Source of the DNA: Hydrurus foetidus
Lineage: Eukaryota
Direction: 5' to 3'
NCBI GenBank assembly: GCA_900617105.1
Contig: UYFQ01000260.1
Span: forward strand, 248,001 to 312,000
Length of the DNA: 64,000 nt
Shown here: positions 1,162 to 52,506 of the stretch, piece after piece
Position numbering within the stretch: position 1 is the first letter of the stretch
Layout of the letters: every line of letters begins with the position of its first letter
The notes under the pieces: generated by a model
Seen by the model: only the letters and a program-made list of their open reading frames with translations
What the model was told of the DNA's origin: nothing
Database searches by the model: none
Position numbers and translations under genes: made by a program

Positions 1162-1560
1162 CGGACCAGACGGTCGGGCGGTCGCGGTCCTCGCAAGAGG
1201 GCCGAGGAAAGTCCGGGCTCCACGGTGACAAGGCGGCGGGTAACGCCCGCCGGGAGCGATCCCAGGGATAGCGCCACAGAAAGCAAACCTCCTCCCTTTC
1301 GAGGGCGGGAAGGGTGAAAGGGTGGGGTAAGAGCCCACCGCGGACCTGGCGACAGGGACGGCATGGCAAGCCCCGCCTGGAGCAAGACCGAATAGGGACC
1401 CCGCGTCGACCTCGCGTCGACTAGGCCGTCACTGGCTGAGTAGGGTTCGGGTAGGTCGCGAGAACCGTCCAGCAATGGGCGGTCCAGAGGAATGATCGTC
1501 GCATTCTCGCCTCTCGGGGCAAGGGTGGCACAGAACCCGGCTTACAGACCGTCTGGTCCG
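1162..1560 (+). ncRNA. rnpB: RNase P RNA, class A
   Basis: GAGGAAAGTCCGGGC near the 5' end, ACAGAACCCGGCTTA near the 3' end, terminal stem CGGACCAGACGGTC/GACCGTCTGGTCCG. Confidence 0.97.
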
Positions 1561-5432: not shown

Positions 5433-6861
5433 GTGACGCTGTCCGACCTTCTCGCCGCGACCTGCCCGATAGTCCGGTGATCACCGGGGTGACGGCCGAC
5501 AGCCGCAAGGTCGGGCCCTCGCCCTCCCGCCGGGCACGAAAGTCGATGGCCAGCTTCGCCCCCAGGGCCATCGCCGCAGGCGCGGCCGCCGTGCTGGGTC
5601 CGGTCGGCATGGAGACCTTCTCGGTCCCGACCGTGAAGGTCGAGGATCCGCGCCGCGCCTATGCCCTGGCCTCGGCCGCCTTCTGGGGCGCCCAGCCGGC
5701 GATCTGCATCGCCATCACCGGCACCAACGGCAAGACCTCGGTGGCCGGCTTCTGTCGCCAGATCTTCGCGCGACTCGGCCACAAGGCCGCCAGCATGGGA
5801 ACCCTGGGCGTCGTGGTCAGTGGGCCCGGCGCTGCGGACCAGCAACTGACCCCTCCCGGCCTCACCACCCCTGACGCGGCCGATGTGGCCGAGATGATGG
5901 CGCGTCTGGCGCGCGAGGGTGTCACCCACCTGGCGGTCGAGGCCTCGTCGCACGGCGTGGATCAACGCCGCCTGGACGGGGTGAGCCTGAAGGCCGCCGG
6001 CTTTACCAACTTCACCCAGGATCACCTCGACTATCACGGCTCGATGGAGAGCTATCGCGACGCCAAGCTGCGCCTGTTCGACGCCCTGCTGCCCATTGGC
6101 GCGACGGCGGTGCTGAACAGCGACAGCGACGCGTTTCCGGTCTTCGCCGCCGCAGCGTGATGTCGGGCCAGGCGTGTTCTCGGTGGGCGACGGGGCCGGG
6201 ACTCAAGCTGGTCTCGCGCGCCCTGCCCGAGGGCCAGCCCTGACGGTCGAGGCGGCCGGCCAGACTCACACCGTCGAGCTGCCGCTGGCCGGGCCTTCCA
6301 GGCCAGCAACGTGCTGGTCGCGGCCGGGCTGTGCATCGCCACCGGCGAGGACACGGCCGCCGTGCTCAAGGCGCTGGAAAGCCTGGAAGGCGCGGCCGGT
6401 CGTCTGCAGCGCGTGGGTCGCGGCGCCCGGGGCGGCGAGGCCTATGTCGACTACGCCCACACCCCGGACGGACTGGAGACCGTCCTGGAAGCCCTGCGCC
6501 CGCACACGGCCGGCAAGCTGATCGTGGTGTTCGGCGCGGGCGGTGATCGCGATCGCGGTAAAAGGCCCTGATGGGCGAGATCGCCGCGCGGCTGGCCGAC
6601 ATCGCCATCGTCACCGACGACAATCCGCGCTCGGAAGAGCCCGCCTCGATCCGCGCCGCCATCCTGGCCGCTGCGCCGGGCGCGACCGAGATCGGCGACC
6701 GCCGCGCCGCCATCCGCGCCGCCGCCGCCCAGATGGTCGAGGGCGACGTGCTGGTCGTGGCCGGCAAGGGTCACGAGCAGGGGCAGCTGGTGGCCGGCGT
6801 CAATCACCCGTTCGACGATGTGACCGAAACCCTCGCCGCGCTGGAGATGGCTGATGTCTGA
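5433..6861 (+). CDS. murE: UDP-MurNAc-tripeptide synthetase, several frameshifts
   Basis: [41 protein letters not shown] across ORF pieces. Confidence 0.93.
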
Positions 6862-12046: not shown

Positions 12047-12110
12047 GCAACCCTCTCTCTTTGAGAGAGGGAGGGGCCCGCCGCCGCAGGCGGTGGGAGG
12101 GTGAGAGGTT
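12047..12110 (+). repeat. Left arm of the inverted repeat flanking the DUF559 gene
   Basis: Reverse complement of 12516-12577 except one internal loop; internal hairpin CCCTCTCTC-TTT-GAGAGAGGG. Confidence 0.92.
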
Positions 12111-12447
12111 ACACCCTGTCCGAACGAAGCACCGCCAGGATGTCTTCCGACACGCCACCGGGATCGGCCAGCACCCGCGCGTTGGGAAATCGCAGAACGA
12201 TGTAACCGAACAATTCCAGCACCTGGTCCGTCGCTCGTCATGGTCCTCGGCCGTCATGGGCCGCGCCGTCCAGTTCCACGATCACCTTGGCTGCCTCGCA
12301 GACGAAGTCCGCGAAGTATCGATCAATCGCGACCTGCCGCAGAAACCTGAACCCGCCCAGCCGGCGATTGCGGACGAGGGTCCAAAGCGTCTTCTCGGCC
12401 AGGGTCTGGTTGCGGCGAAGACGACGGGCGTTGGCGGTCTTGTCCAT
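12109..12447 (-). CDS. DUF559 / Vsr-like PD-(D/E)xK endonuclease-domain protein, frameshifted
   Basis: ARRLRRNQTLAEKTLW, FRFLRQVAIDRYFADFVC, VELDGAAH, DERRT, GYIVLRFPN; TAA at 12109-12111. Confidence 0.88.
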
Positions 12448-12515
12448 GGCGAAACCATGGTCCGACCGCATGGGACTTTCAACGACAGGAATCGGGATTT
12501 TCCGGCCAGCGGTGA

Positions 12516-12577
12516 AACCTCTCACCCTCCCACCGCTTCGCGGCGGGCCCCTCCCTCTCTCAAAGAGAGAGGGTTGC
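12516..12577 (-). repeat. Right arm of the inverted repeat flanking the DUF559 gene
   Basis: Near-perfect inverted copy of 12047-12110. Confidence 0.92.
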
Positions 12578-12586
12578 AGGCAGGGC

Positions 12587-13195
12587 CTAAACCCGCCGCA
12601 CTCCCCACGATCGCCACCGGCGGGTTGATCATCTGGCCCTTCATGCTGGGGTTCTGCGGCACGCCGTCGGTCTTCGAGGCCAGGATCTTGCGCACCACGT
12701 CCATGCCCTTGACCACCGTGCCGAAGGCCGCGAAGCCCTGGTTGTCGCCGGGGGCGCCGGGCTTGGCGTCGAGATAGGCCATCGGGCTGGCGCAGATGAA
12801 GAAGTCGGCCGTGGCGCTGCCCGGCTCGTTGCGGGCCATCGAGATCGTGCCGGCCTTGTGCCGGATCCCCGTCGCGTGCTCTCGTGGGCGATGGGCGCGA
12901 AGCGGCGGGTGCGGATCGAGGGGCCGGCCTGGATCGAGCCGTTGGCCGGCGCGCCCCGGGCCCGCGAGGCGCGATAGAAGCTGCCGCCGTCGAACTTCTT
13001 CTTGTCGACATAGCGCAGGAAGTTGGCCGAGGTAATCGGCGCCTTCTTGTCTTCCAGTTCCACCACGATCACGCCCAGCGCGGTCTCGATCGCCACCCGG
13101 GGCTTGGCGCTCTGGGCTTGCGCCGACAGCGGGCTGACCAGCAACAGTCCGGCCCCGACCAGCAGGCTTCGGCGGGCGATCCAGGCGTCTTTCAT
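12587..13195 (-). CDS. Secreted cyclophilin-type peptidyl-prolyl isomerase, frameshifted
   Basis: RR signal peptide, KAPITSANFLRYV, GTISMAR, ADFFI, FAAFGTVVKGMDVV. Confidence 0.88.
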
Positions 13196-20247: not shown

Positions 20248-20491
20248 GCCTTTTCCCCCGCCGGGCGCCCGGCGACCACACTAACACCGGACTGAACGGC
20301 CCGGGCCTGACTTCGTTGCGCGGGCAAGGTCGGCCTCGCCGGCTGATTGGCGTCAGCCGGGCGGCGCCTCTGAGAGGGGCGAGAACAGCACGGCCAACTG
20401 TATCGGTTTGGCGACCGTGGCGCTCGCGCACTCAAGAGTTGCCACTTCGTTCTCATCCCGCTAGGCTTGTGTTACGGGATGGGAGCAGGGC

Positions 20492-20815
20492 GATGCGGCC
20501 GCCGTTTACCTATGTGAGATGGCTGCACCGGCCCCGGGTGATCGGGCCCCGGTTCATCCCCTATCTGGACGCGGCTGGCGACCGCTGCGAGGCTTCCGTC
20601 CGCATCCGATGGGCGCGCGCGAGTTCTGGACCTTCGCGCATGTTGAAGGCTTCGAGCACGTCGAACCCGATGACGACCTGTTGGGCCGGTTCTGGGTCGA
20701 GATCGACGGCCACCGCTGGGCCAAGACGTTTCGGGGCAGCGACGACATCCACCTTCTGCGGCTCTGTATGTGGTTCGCCGGCGACTGGCTGATCCGCACC
20801 GCAGAGGAGGCCTGA
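20492..20815 (+). CDS. Small hypothetical protein, probably frameshifted
   Basis: Protein-like C-terminal frame (WTFAHVEGF..WLIRTAEEA) and an N-terminal piece MRPPFTYVRWL in another frame. Confidence 0.4.
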   Translation, partial: DAAAVYLCEMAAPAPGDRAPVHPLSGRGWRPLRGFRPHPMGAREFWTFAHVEGFEHVEPDDDLLGRFWVEIDGHRWAKTFRGSDDIHLLRLCMWFAGDWLIRTAEEA

Positions 20816-20876
20816 CCCTGCTGCCAGGCAGCGAGACGCCGGTGACCACATGGCCCCAGCTGTTCGCGGCGCGCCC

Positions 20877-21222
20877 ATGACGGCGGTGGCCCCGGATCTG
20901 GTGCTGGGACCGCGCGCGATCTCCTTTTGCCGGGTCGCGCGCGCCGGCGCCGCCGCCGCCAATGACGATGATTATGAAGCGGGCTCGGTCCTGATGACCC
21001 TGCGGTCTCTGGCGGCTGACCAGGTCATTGGCTGGCCGACTCGACCTCGACGGCCAGACCGCCCGCCTCGAAACGCGCGGCGCCGACGAGCTTCAGGTCA
21101 CCTATGAGCTGATCCAGCTGTCGGGCGCCTGGCTGATCGAGACCGCCAGGGTGCGGGGCCTGGTGCTGTTCGCGTGGGGGCAAACGCCGGTCGTGGCGCC
21201 GATGGATGTGTTTGTGCTGTGA
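20877..21222 (+). CDS. Small hypothetical protein, probably frameshifted
   Basis: MTAVAPDLVLG..DQVIGW continues plausibly into GRLDLDG..PMDVFVL after a shift near 21035. Confidence 0.4.
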
Positions 21223-21332: not shown

Positions 21333-21450
21333 CCCGTCATCCCGGGACTTGTTCCCGGGACCCATTTGTCCCGCGGTACGGGCGATGAAGGGGTGTTCGA
21401 CGGCGGGCGGCTGAACCATGGGTCCCGGGAACAAGTCCCGGGATGACGGG
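21333..21450. repeat. CGTC-type REP inverted dimer
   Basis: Perfect 33-bp inverted repeat 21333-21365 / 21418-21450; each arm is itself a hairpin (TCCCGGGA-cttgt-TCCCGGGA) headed by CGTC. Confidence 0.9.
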
Positions 21451-21614
21451 CAGGGGGCTCTTCAGCAGTTCTCCATCGTTCTGCCGAGCTCTATCCCCGC
21501 GCTCCAACGGGGATAAGGGCCTTTCCGCCCCAACAACTTCAACGCCCTAACCCCGCGACCCAGCGTCACGATCCAAAATCGACGCAGCCCCCTCCAAAAC
21601 GCCCGCATACTTCT

Positions 21615-21956
21615 CCTCGCTTCATCGCAAGGGGAGGGCGTCCAGCTGGCGACCTGACGGGGGGTGGGGGCGGTTGTGCGGGTGCGAAGGCGGGTGTCGT
21701 AAACCCGCCTATCGGAGGAAGGCCAAGCCTCCGCCCGTCCGAAGGTTCGCTCCGGGTTCCTCCGGAATCGGCGTGGCTGCAGCCCAAGGCTGGGTCCGTC
21801 GCGAGGGGGATGAAATCCGGGTGGGGCATAAGGCTGAACAGGCCTGCGCGCCCCGGCCAGAGGGATAACGACCGCGCGGAGCGCTCCGGCCACGGCCGAA
21901 ACGGTACTCCACTAAACCCTCATCCGGGCCTGGCCCGGACGCTCCGCCGCCTCCCC
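21615..21956 (+). ncRNA. Candidate large structured ncRNA, copy 1 (family not recognised)
   Basis: Homologous to 49205-49611; closing stems, many hairpins, CATACT -10-like box at 21606-21611. Confidence 0.65.
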
Positions 21957-22002
21957 ACACTTGCCGCTCAAACCGGCGAGGCTGCGAACCTGTGTTCTGT
22001 AT

Positions 22003-22479
22003 CTAACCCGGAAACTTCAGCAGATTGGGCTTGGGGATCGCGGCCTTGAAGCTGCCGCGCGTCTTGGCGGTGTCGAGACCGAAATCGGCCCAGGCGGCCA
22101 GGAACCCGGCGGCCGGCGCGTTGGCGGGCAGGGGCGCGAGGTTCAGAACGGGGCGGGCGGCGACCGCTGCTCGGGCGGCCGCCCAGGCCTCGGGCTCGGC
22201 CGTGGCATAGGCGCCATCGGCGCTGACCAGTTCGCTCGCGAGGGCCGGGTCCTGGAAATACAGGGTCACGGCGGCATTGGCGGGCTGGTCCGTGAGGCTG
22301 GCCAGGGCCTCGGTCAGGGCGATCAGCGACATGCGGGCGCCGCTGGTCCGCCGCTCGCCGCCGGCCGCGCCCTTGATCGCTTCGGGGCCGCTCGCGCCCT
22401 CCATCCGCCGCACGAAGGACCAGCCGCCATAGCCGGGGTCCGAGCGGCACAGGCTGGCGGTCCACAGAATGACGGTCAT
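22003..22479 (-). CDS. Degenerate RNase HI-like protein
   Basis: VILWTASLCRSDPGYGGW..GGERRTSGARMSLIALTEAL mirrors the RNase HI N-terminal pattern without the acidic catalytic residues. Confidence 0.6.
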   Translation of the reverse strand: MTVILWTASLCRSDPGYGGWSFVRRMEGASGPEAIKGAAGGERRTSGARMSLIALTEALASLTDQPANAAVTLYFQDPALASELVSADGAYATAEPEAWAAARAAVAARPVLNLAPLPANAPAAGFLAAWADFGLDTAKTRGSFKAAIPKPNLLKFPG

Positions 22480-48685: not shown

Positions 48686-48750
48686 GCGAAGATTCCCTGG
48701 AGCTTTGCCCAAGGTTCGTTTTCTTTCGCTACGGAAGTCAAGGGCAGGCC

Positions 48751-49078
48751 TCAGCCGCCGGTCGAATCCACGATGATGGCCACGGTCTTGCTGCGCGACA
48801 GCGGGTCCCATCCGCCACGATGGCCGAGGCGATGGCCCCTGGCCACCAGTTCCAGGGCGACCTGAGAGGGCTTCAGCAGCGGCGCGCCATAGCGGGGCCG
48901 CGGGCCGGGCGGAAACTCGATCACGGCTTCGCGCTGACCTTCCTGTGGCGCACGGCGATCGCCATGCCATGCCGCTCGGGGCGTCGCTGGACCAGCCGGG
49001 CTGGCGATGAAGCCGCCACATGTAGGGGTCCCCCGCGACCTCGATTTCAAACTCAGGGCTTAGTTTTGTTCGCGCCAT
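48751..49078 (-). CDS. Small hypothetical protein, frameshifted
   Basis: MARTKLSPEFEIEV.. and EGQREAVIEFP..GWDPLSRSK pieces. Confidence 0.6.
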
Positions 49079-49204
49079 GCAAGCGTGTTAGCCCGTCACG
49101 CGCCCTCAGACCACCCCGACCCGCTTCGCCAGCCGCTATCGGCCCCCTGTGGCCAAGGCCAGGGCGCAAGCTCGCGACCTCGCGCGGGAAACCGCCGAGT
49201 GGGT

Positions 49205-49611
49205 GGGAAGGGCTGCGGAGCGCCCGGGCCTCGCCCGGATGTGAGTTTGTAGAAGTACCGTTTCGACGAAGACAGACGCTCCGCGCAGCCGTTATCCGGT
49301 GAGCCCTCGGGGCGCGGGGTTTTAACCCGCTTCCGACGTTAGGCCCCCGACGGGTGGAGGGGATAGCGACCCCGTCCAGACCGCATGGGCGATTTCAGCC
49401 CATGCCTGTTGCGACATCGCCGCTCGCATCCTCGGGTCGATGTCGGCGGCGAACGGTCAGGGTGGGCCAGGCCACCTTGGCGACGAGGGTCACCCCTTAA
49501 GACCGTTGGCCAGCCCACACCCGCTGACGCTGGCGGCGAGCGCTTCCCGCTCGACCACACCCCAGGGCCCGTCAGGTCGCCGGCCGACGCCCTTCCCCTG
49601 CCTTCAGGTGA
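49205..49611 (-). ncRNA. Candidate large structured ncRNA, copy 2 (family not recognised)
   Basis: Shares ordered blocks and stems with 21615-21956; CATAAT -10-like box at 49617-49622 on the minus strand. Confidence 0.65.
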
Positions 49612-49756
49612 GACTGATTATGCAGGCGGTTTCAGCGCGTCTGACAGGCGCGATCAACTAATTTGCAAGCCCTTGATCAGGCTGGGGTTTGTTTCGAAAA
49701 GAACGGGGATTGGGCGCAGTTTGTCCCCTTGCCCGGCCGGTCAGCGTCCGGTCGTC

Positions 49757-50100: not shown

Positions 50101-52309
50101 TTACTGCCCCTTAAGCTTGCGGCCGAAGAACTCCAGGTGCGTCTTGAGCACGCTGAGGCCCTTGGTCTTGCTGCCGGGGGCGCTGTGGCGCTCGCCGGGA
50201 TAGAGGGCCATTTCGAAGGGGATGGCCTTTTTCTGCAGGGCCGCGATCAGGCGGGTGCTGTTTTCGAAGATGACATTGTCATCGGCCATGCCGTGCAGCA
50301 GCAGCAGGCTGCCGGGCTTCATCCTGTCCAGACGGGTGAGGATATCGGACCGCGCATAGCCGTCCTTGTTCTCCTCAGGCTTGCCCATGTAGCGCTCGGT
50401 ATAGGCGGTGTCGTAGAGGCCCCACTCGGTGGGCGGCGCGCCGCCGGCCCCGGCCTTGAAGGGGCTGTCGTCGGCGGTCAGCATCATCAGGGTCATGAAG
50501 CCGCCATACGACCAGCCGACCACGCCCAGCTTCTCGGCGTCCACATAGGGCAGGGTTTTCAGATAGTTGGCGCCGACCAGCTGATCGTCGACCTCCACGG
50601 TGCCCATGCGCCGATCCAGGGCTCGCGCGAACTTCGCCGAGCGGTTGGCGGTGCCACGGTTGTCGAGCCGGAAGACGAGGTAGCCGGCTTCGAGATAGGT
50701 GCGTTCCGACGGGCTCTGCCAGATCTTCCGGACATTCTGGGCGTACGCCAGCAGACGGCGACGATGGCGAGATACTTTTCGACGGGTCGAAATCGGCCGG
50801 CTTCAGCAGGGCGTAGTACAGGGTCTCGCCGTCGGCGGCCTTCAGGGTTCCGTAGTCCGGCGTGGTCAGGGTCGAGGCATAGGGCCAGTAAGGATGCCCC
50901 TCGGCCAGCCGGTTTTCCTCGATCCAGCGCACGCGCTTGCCGTCGGGCGCATAGAGCGCGGTCTGGGGCGGGGTCTTGGGATCGGTGTAGGTGCCGGCAA
51001 AGGCGCCGTTGGGCGCCACCTTGGCCGTCCACCAGCCGCCGGCCGGGGTCAGGGCCTTGGGCTTGCCGGGTTTGACGTAGGAGACCTCATAGAGGCGGCG
51101 CTCGATCGGCGTGTCGATGGAGGCGCCGAAGATCACCACCTTGCGGGCCTCATCGACGCCCTCGACCCGGTTCATCGGCCAGTCGCCCTTGGTGATCTGG
51201 GCGATCAGCTTGCCGTCGGCGGCGTGGCGATAGAGGTGGTTGAAGCCCGACTTCTCCGATGACCACAGGAAGGTGCCATCGCTGAGAGGGCGGAAGTCTT
51301 CGTGCACCTCGATGAAGTGGCGGTCGGTCTCGGTCAGGACCGTCTTGCCCTGACCCGTGGCCGGGTCGAAGGCGATGATGTCCAGGGTCTTTTGGTCGCG
51401 CGACAGGCGCTGGACATAGACGGTCTTGCCATTGGCCGACCAGTCGACGCGGGCGACATAGATGTCCTTGTTCGCGCCCAGATCCAGCTGCACGTCCTGG
51501 CCGGTGGCCAGGTTGCGCACAAACAGGTCGACCACGGCGTTGGGGCGGCCGGCGCGGGGATAGCGCTGCAGCACGACGGTGGCGCCGCCGGGGCCGATAT
51601 CGGCGCGGGGCACGATGTCGACGCCGCTCTCATCGACGCGGGCATAGGCGATGTGGCCTTCGCTGGGCGACCACCAGTAGCCGCTGAAACGGTCCAGCTC
51701 TTCCTGGGCGATGAACTCGGCGACGCCGAACGACAGGGCGTCCTTGCCCTCGGTGGTCAGGGCCTTTTCGGCCCCGCCGTTGACCGGCTTCAGATAGAGG
51801 TTCTGGTCGCGAACATACGAGACATAGCCGCCCAGCGGCGAGACCTTGGCGTCGACCTCGTCGCCCGGGGTTTCGGTCAGGCGGGAAACCTTGCCGTCGG
51901 AAACGCTGTCCAGATAGAGGTCGCCGTCCAGCGGCACCAGGATGAAGCGCCCCTGGCTGTCCCAGCTGTATTCGACGATGCCGCGCGACGAGACGCGGGC
52001 CCTTTCGCGGCGGGCCTTCTCGGCCTCAGACAGCTCCTTGGCGCCCGACGACAGGGTGGCCGAGTCGATCAGACGATAGGGCTCGCCGCCGGCCACATCG
52101 GCCGCCCACAGGTCCTGGACATTGGCGGCCTCGGCCTTGGCTTTCAGATAGGTGACGCGCTTGCCGTCCGGCGACAGGGCCACGCCCTTGGCGGCGGGAC
52201 CCGACAGGCTGGGATCAGCGAAGATGCGTTCGGGGGGCAGCTTTTCCGCCAGCACGGGCGAAGTCAGGGCGAGGCACGCCGCGAGGGCGGTAAGCGAGGG
52301 TCTGATCAT
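50101..52309 (-). CDS. Dipeptidyl peptidase IV (S9B), frameshifted
   Basis: AQEELDR, GWSYGG nucleophile motif, ADDNV, ERH. Confidence 0.93.
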
Positions 52310-52374: not shown

Positions 52375-52492
52375 AAGTCCTCCCCCTGAAGGGGGAGGCG
52401 GTCCGGAGGCCGGTGGGGGAAGACCGCATTGATCCAGCAGTCACTTCCCCCTCCGATCGGCTTCGCGATCGCCTCCCCCTGGGGGGGGACTT
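52375..52492. repeat. Inverted dimer of double-hairpin REP-like units, no ORF inside
   Basis: AAGTCCTCCCCCTGAAGGGGGAGGCG..GGGGGAAG faces CTTCCCCC..CGCCTCCCCCTGGGGGGGGACTT. Confidence 0.7.
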
Positions 52493-52506
52493 GTCTCAAC
52501 CGACCT

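Follow-up and report, generated by a model that had tools for sequence, protein, structure and literature searches.

Two spacers in the window (the whole 64 000-nucleotide stretch of DNA analysed here) are copies of a dispersed multicopy non-coding unit of Caulobacterales, about 500–570 bases long. We are close to certain that this unit represents a real family of structured nucleic acids, and it is very probable that the family works as RNA, with a predicted length of 275–450 nt. The whole account that we favour combines a scaffold-like RNA that assembles with itself and a cassette that recombination, aided by REP nucleases, amplifies and remixes; we give it an even chance of being right.

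The pairing of the two spacers in the preliminary description was homologous beyond chance (nhmmer E 6e-13 and 4.6e-10), and nhmmer found no third copy in the window. The 14-bp identical block (21648–21661/49568–49581), the common blocks 21863–21870/49290–49297 and 21897–21908/49254–49265 with their order, and the copy 1 stems 21876–21883/21940–21947 and 21631–21640/21948–21956 had all been placed correctly, and the −10-like boxes were located in both copies (Table 1). The bounds had to be moved outwards, as the true common unit extends from about 21492 to 21994 and from about 49730 to 49165. It has three parts: a left module of ~125 bp, a core that measures 275–410 nt up to the closing strand, and a pair of 3′ hairpins that lack a U run. 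The 'closing stem' described before does pair with the 3′ end over about 6–7 nt of its 5′ strand, whereas the remainder belongs, by eye, to a hairpin.

Table 1. Features of the two copies and of associated repeats, in window coordinates
Feature	Position	Strand	Remarks
DUF559 gene (about 12127–12444, apparently frameshifted) between two REP hairpins	12050–12600	−	tblastn 82% to the DUF559 of G001
REP doublet (GTCAT/Ssn-type hairpin repeat)	21335–21448	.	Just left of copy 1; accessory, outside the conserved unit
Copy 1 left module	21492–21617	+	Common to paralogues; left-module HMM
Copy 1 left module, terminal hairpin	21492–21515	+	
Copy 1 degenerate IHF-like site	about 21537–21549	+	
Copy 1 promoter-like region, −10-like box	21605–21611	+	
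Copy 1 predicted RNA	21618–21994	+	About 377 nt (about 339 to the closing strand); start predicted
P1 helix	21622–21667	+	21622–21628 with about 21661–21667; encloses closing strand and kissing hairpin
Closing pseudoknot, 5′ strand	21631–21637	+	Partner 21950–21956
7-nt hairpin loop	21642–21648	+	Last six bases (21643–21648) self-complementary; predicted intermolecular kissing loop
P3a	21670–21875	+	21670–21676 with 21869–21875; two variable swappable domains and a conserved hairpin inside
3′ core	21876–21947	+	P7 21876–21883/21940–21947; P9 21924–21928/21934–21938
Copy 1 near-invariant motif	21897–21906	+	
Copy 1 G-poor linker	21907–21923	+	Composition
Second pseudoknot	about 21890–21895	+	Pairs with P9 loop
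3′ hairpins	21960–21994	+	No U run; up to the right boundary of the unit
Copy 2 left module	49617–49730	−	Begins about 25 nt past the upstream stop codon
Copy 2 terminal hairpin	49728–49705	−	
Copy 2 IHF-like site	49678–49666	−	
Copy 2 −10-like box	49623–49617	−	
Copy 2 predicted RNA	49165–49610	−	About 445 nt
Copy 2 self-complementary loop	49586–49581	−	
Copy 2 core motif	49265–49256	−	
Copy 2 closing strand	49212–49205	−	

Searching the window against Rfam 15 at the gathering threshold returned a sole match, a real RNase P at 1166–1560 (+ strand); this is the genome's own class A RNase P RNA (295 bits). As proposed earlier, the unit belongs to no named RNA family: neither copy, nor any of 26 further loci (homologues or candidate matches), matched a family in Rfam 15 beyond sub-threshold, miRNA-like noise. 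A likeness to group II domain V, hammerhead or lariat-capping RNA was not borne out by the pairings. The shared blocks are not explained by a conserved ORF, as core lengths spread 59/60/50 over the three frames and the three overlapping ORFs tested had no match in Pfam. The unit has in common with the large ornate ncRNAs that it is long, multi-junction, supported by covariation and free of an ORF.

Both copies folded somewhat more stably than shuffled sequences, with z values of −2.8 for copy 1 and −2.9 for copy 2 (stretch ending before the closing strand). We assessed the helices on 154 distinct rows with slid registers as controls. P1 was 91% paired with both-side changes at 7 of 7 pairs (slid controls 33–49%), and P3a was 90% paired, again with both-side changes at all 7 pairs (slid controls 20–44%). 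P7 was almost always paired (99%) and had both-side changes at 2 of 8 pairs. The second pseudoknot, between the P9 loop and the junction, was 87% paired (both-side changes 5/5). Because it is situated within another helix's loop, the closing pairing is a pseudoknot; it was also 87% paired (both-side changes 6/6), and its register is ambiguous because a slide of −1 gives the same 87%. Across 49 diverse 3′ cores, pairing was 92.3%, 10 of 18 pairs had both-side changes, and none of 500 shuffles equalled the pairing. With a sterner, tree-based null, three pairs reached E ≤0.03 and one P3a pair 0.23; P3a pairs were among the top covarying. The compensatory changes support several of the predicted helices and the 3′ pseudoknot, with the proviso that mosaic ancestry can inflate covariation. 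G–U pairs were frequent, so one strand is favoured. The multicopy, multi-junction and structure-conserving character that had been proposed agrees with these both-side changes and with the copy counts given below.

Inside P3a, the conserved hairpin carries an A-rich 7-nt loop. The linker between the near-invariant motif and P9 is 12–20 nt long, contains 3% G and occurs in 166 distinct forms among 198. We considered it as a guide and rejected this, since it matched its own flanks no better than permuted ones (6.25 versus 6.23, n=133, 400 nt on each side); it reads as an unstructured spacer. Among 148 left modules, 56 had the terminal hairpin and 49 had an IHF-like site no more than one mismatch away from the IHF consensus (0–5 in shuffles).

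The hairpin inside P1 has a 7-nt loop whose end is self-complementary. Of 169 copies, 158 have this property in the inner four bases and 115 in all six. Eight distinct perfect hexamers occurred, and 20 000 column shuffles of the 22 distinct hexamers never matched the observed self-complementarity. The 11 copies that missed the inner four were mostly parsing shifts and a few were real; the palindrome is absent in L178 and in L370 and L572, the latter two from a second family, in which further hexamers were seen by eye. Several loop classes can coexist within one genome. The stem under the loop was seen by eye, the column test being mis-registered at this place (35% paired). A six-base palindrome cannot pair inside its own loop; the simplest reading is therefore pairing between two molecules. 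On this model, the RNA probably pairs with itself through the loop, giving dimers or larger assemblies. Kissing loops and palindromic pairing drive the assembly of large ornate RNAs (PMC12990946 and 10.1101/2024.12.08.627333).

The third iterated model counted 58 copies in G001, the genome nearest to that of the window, and 45, 18, 13 and 8 copies in four other genomes. A metagenome-assembled genome (MAG) titled Alsobacter soli (G450) had 55; the one copy read there (L191) was of the G001 type, and the title may be wrong. Of 151 Caulobacteraceae genomes, the first model found the element in 36, which belong to 9 of 27 genera. Iterated models extended its range to a second Caulobacterales family (15 of 151 genomes), where the loci read kept the architecture at little sequence identity. 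Weak matches in two more Caulobacterales families lay in coding DNA. A pattern scan of named genomes gave at least 120 loci, among the titles listed mostly Caulobacter and Brevundimonas, and C. vibrioides DSM 9893 was among the element-bearing records listed. The HMM was passed by 101 of 127 scored loci; titles from distant taxa failed, except the Alsobacter-titled MAG and three loosely classified MAGs. Within the same genus, 8 of 11 complete genomes had no match.

Outside Caulobacterales, a thin sample of 149 genomes from other alphaproteobacterial families, with the best 21–27 candidates per genome scored, contained no real match; one weak match among them lay in coding DNA. The order of the Sphingopyxis record gave 0 of 151 in a similarly thin sample (best 21–27 candidates per genome, no positive control in the set). 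The plasmid and phage collections searched contained no match. Pattern scans of viral contigs gave 23 and at least 122 loci, and the HMM confirmed none of these.

The copies lie between unrelated genes of either orientation, the downstream gene facing one way in 76 cases and the other way in 72 (crude gene caller). Most of the 22 copies in a related genome, G136, have a counterpart at the same site in G001 or the window. In 16 of 22 orthologous comparisons, the identity of the middle did not exceed 77%, and in eight the loop differed; the downstream flank was at least 92% identical in 16. At the site of copy 2, the window, G001, G136 and G003 each have a copy, of three subtypes altogether, and the site in G011 (L084) is empty without a duplication scar. 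Fixed sites combined with turned-over modules point to gene conversion among resident copies, with occasional gain and loss.

The longest inverted match between the two ends was 5.8 nt versus 5.5 nt with permuted partners (n=135), i.e. no terminal inverted repeats; a target-site duplication was likewise not detected (5.5 versus 5.3), nor at the empty site. BLASTP clustering at about 235 loci revealed no recurring neighbour gene that could be an IscB, TnpB or IS110 partner, or any other. Reverse transcriptase occurred in 10 of 36 RNA-positive and 21 of 115 other genomes. The preliminary description had allowed for a mobile RNA; its retro-mobile form is disfavoured because the promoter region moves with the unit and the 58-copy genome has no match to a reverse transcriptase (RVT_1). 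The one reverse transcriptase near a copy is a 515-aa RVT_1 protein in G172 (L326, 1831–3375, + strand), encoded about 1 kb from the copy with another gene between them; it is likely an unrelated defence reverse transcriptase.

In G010 (L077, about 1381–1503, − strand), a left module without the RNA directly precedes an ORF that has no Pfam match and carries a motif like those of polymorphic toxins. In G001, this ORF stands downstream of a complete copy (L015, 1630–2370, + strand). The promoter module can apparently be used without the RNA.

REP hairpins crowd the unit. Among 44 copies in G001, 35 have one no more than about 270 nt away, as do 93 of 146 copies overall (81 on the left, 36 on the right). 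Three copies fall within a 360 kb sample of G001 that was drawn at round coordinates, and five of the seven REP clusters in this sample are next to them. The left end of the copy 2 site holds a REP doublet in G136 and a whole inserted DUF559 unit in G001, and neither in the window, where copy 2 has no REP. Two G136 copies have a REP doublet inside the left module. Nuclease genes within 2 kb of a copy were also more frequent than arithmetic estimates of the expectation: 6 of 24 DUF559 genes (about 0.8 expected) and 2 of 13 short GIY-YIG genes (about 0.5 expected), all on the promoter side; some of these sites in G001 and G136 may be orthologous and hence non-independent. In the second family, two further DUF559 genes lie near copies.

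The link is not exclusive. Many genomes have REPs (141 of 151) or DUF559 (124 of 151) independently of the RNA, the REP pattern is absent from two single-copy genomes, and outside one genus the correlation between copy number and REP count is weak (rho 0.27, p 0.16, n=28). The DUF559 gene of the window adjoins neither copy; together with its REPs it is a candidate trans-acting nuclease unit. A stand-alone DUF559-type REP doublet without an RNA copy lies at 52378–52500. Hairpins of this kind are where Ssn GIY-YIG nucleases cleave single-stranded DNA, and these enzymes modulate recombination (PMC11893778). By analogy, DUF559 proteins may act likewise on REPs; a literature search found no published activity of this kind. 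The REPs could just as well be guests, inserted upstream of a promoter that is active.

Three further observations concern this neighbourhood. By eye, the 3′ end of the RNA (21920–21957 in the window) resembles the left half of DUF559-type REPs, possibly through shared ancestry or mimicry. A MITE-like intergenic repeat of ~200 bp with terminal inverted repeats occurs often in the clusters left of the RNA (L329, about 6370–6560; L305; L076). To the left of three G001 copies (L010, L011 and L033), a transposase, presumably IS481-like, is inserted in the REP.

Judged from the anatomy, it is quite likely that the unit is transcribed from a promoter of its own. This putative promoter is recognized by position and conservation: the −10-like box noted earlier lies just before the first helix, P1, and keeps this place in both families, whereas a scan with the E. 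coli consensus called no site at copy 1. Contigs from RNA libraries of three studies (X5, X7 and X14) covered copy 1 only within 21631–21954, except for two pieces nearby, of which one lay on the adjoining REP and the other on the next gene; a run that is probably DNA covered the left module as well. At copy 2, X7 also covered the left module and the flanking genes, and X5 had nothing. In C. crescentus NA1000, the murI–ftsK gap probably contains a copy, because its length is 1082 nt compared with 1085 nt in L232. At this site, the ncRNA sheet of Schrader 2014 (PMC4117421) lists no ncRNA, and the parts of the Zhou 2015 supplements (PMC4287350) that were covered list no transcription start near the predicted start; repeated reads may have been discarded in the NA1000 maps. 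CCNA_R0193 was considered as a copy since its distance to proA fits, and was rejected since its promoter motif differs.

We propose that the promoter would give rise to a pseudoknotted RNA of 275–450 nt that dimerises via its self-complementary kissing loop, each loop sequence defining a class that would assemble with its own kind. The assembled RNA would be a multivalent scaffold, as proposed for ROOL, GOLLD and OLE. The copies would stay intact because selection acts on the scaffold fold. The DNA cassette would be copied and remixed by recombination, with nucleases cutting the neighbouring REP hairpins; for this REP-nuclease-initiated gene conversion and duplication, arguments for and against seem to us evenly balanced. 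The scaffold function, which we suggest by analogy, is the weakest part of the proposal.

The unit might instead be selfish, its RNA promoting the spread of its own DNA without benefit to the host. Nascent transcripts of two copies could kiss and tether their loci, or the RNA could recruit the REP nuclease, and conversion and duplication would follow. The patchy presence would suit such an element, with 0 to 58 copies and most complete congeneric genomes (8/11) without a match, as would the sharp ends, the intact look of the copies examined, the lack of a common neighbour gene, nuclease units on one side and a loop among the first 35 nt transcribed. Sites that stay stable across strains and species are harder to reconcile with it, and so are swaps between different loop classes, single-copy genomes with a plain promoter (L137, L140), a linker unmatched to its own flanks and the lack of terminal repeats and target duplications; we regard this reading as rather unlikely. 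A specific version, a protein-free selfish element whose RNA would pair two chromosomal copies through its kissing loops and, with REP-cutting single-strand nucleases, drive recombination of its own DNA, the different palindromes serving as mating types, appears unlikely to us. The leader or riboswitch that would act in cis on the next gene is scarcely credible: some copies do stand upstream of a co-directional gene, but the gene right of copy 1 is convergent (its end is at 22003) and the downstream genes are unrelated and face either way.

The fold also invites comparison with ribozymes. A self-cleaving or ligating RNA with the near-invariant motif in the 3′ pseudoknot as its catalytic core would account for invariant unpaired bases beside this pseudoknot, kept across the two families, and nested pseudoknots such as those predicted here are typical of ribozymes. 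No Rfam ribozyme matched, however, the anatomy of hammerhead, HDV or group II domain V is absent by eye, and L065, L066, L571 and L585 have lost the motif yet kept the helices, so that we consider catalysis, as modelled, quite improbable. Very improbable, in our estimate, is a fold of single-stranded DNA, a large REP- or MITE-like passenger for hairpin-binding nucleases to which the RNA would be incidental. The tight REP link, the weak signs of expression and the resemblance of the 3′ part to REPs speak for it; it is opposed by the −10-like box holding its place before P1 in both families and by the missing terminal inverted repeats and target duplications, and RNA is the better fit for pseudoknots that span long distances, for A-rich loops resembling T-loops and for a palindrome whose length does not let it fold on itself. 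Among these readings, the scaffold-like RNA in a recombining cassette is the one we prefer.

Literature and supplement motif look-ups, which took in PMC4287350 in part, found no description of the family. Caulobacter is unmentioned in the outline and searched words of bioRxiv 10.64898/2026.10.21.760802, whose database may hold the family. ROOL, GOLLD, OLE and ARRPOF resemble it in their large size, multiple junctions, pseudoknots, lack of an ORF and unknown function. The present element differs from them in that it has no Rfam match, belongs to another lineage and was not in the phage and plasmid collections searched, and also in its up to 58 dispersed copies, its own promoter-like module, several loop classes per genome and swappable modules. 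It is a unit that works, as modelled, like the ornate self-assembling RNAs and belongs to none of them, set apart by copy number, loop classes and the REP link.

The dimerization site (DIS) of HIV-1 is a self-complementary hairpin-loop hexamer that differs between lineages. The likeness lies in this hexamer; here it is part of a chromosomal bacterial unit, and no packaging or reverse-transcription partner was found. HEARO/omega RNA and the IS110 bridge RNA are structured multicopy ncRNAs tied to mobile DNA and have a variable single-stranded segment. In contrast to these, the copies have no recurring nuclease or recombinase neighbour, and the linker is unmatched to the flanks.

Hairpin-repeat clusters around small nuclease genes, the SRM/NTS-Ssn units, have been proposed to be domesticated mobile units (PMC11893778); REP/BIME/NIME mosaics are comparable. 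Such units crowd the left end of the element; their repeats are DNA hairpins of 20–50 nt, whereas the element is a 500–570 bp unit with a conserved RNA-like tertiary fold. The Caulobacter repeats CIR1–CIR4 are intergenic, multicopy and predicted to have RNA structure (PMC2229807), with a length of about 110 bp (PMC2229807 and PMC3184786). Compared by the descriptions in later papers, CIRs have two inverted-repeat arms and a conserved CcrM site, and our unit is five times longer and of other anatomy; a CIR could overlap the flanking REP doublet or part of the unit. By eye, in the two window copies, a CcrM site lies in the middle of copy 1 and not in copy 2.

Large structured bacterial RNAs are rare, and earlier ones gave ribozymes, guide RNAs and RNA cages. 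This element occurs in the genus of a major model organism. Its intact copies can number dozens in one genome, and their orthogonal self-complementary loops and swappable domains make up a natural library. The element would permit a direct test of the role of RNA self-assembly in a cell. It also links a structured RNA with REP hairpins and their DUF559 and Ssn nucleases, the spread of which is unexplained.

Two observations concern the window itself. Three of its genes are apparently frameshifted or split, namely the DUF559 gene at 12127–12444, the gene left of copy 1 (20416–21222) and a DPP IV gene (50101–52309), which suggests indel errors in the assembly. To the right of copy 2, a small segment (48744–49095) is placed elsewhere in five relatives, and this site is a rearrangement junction.
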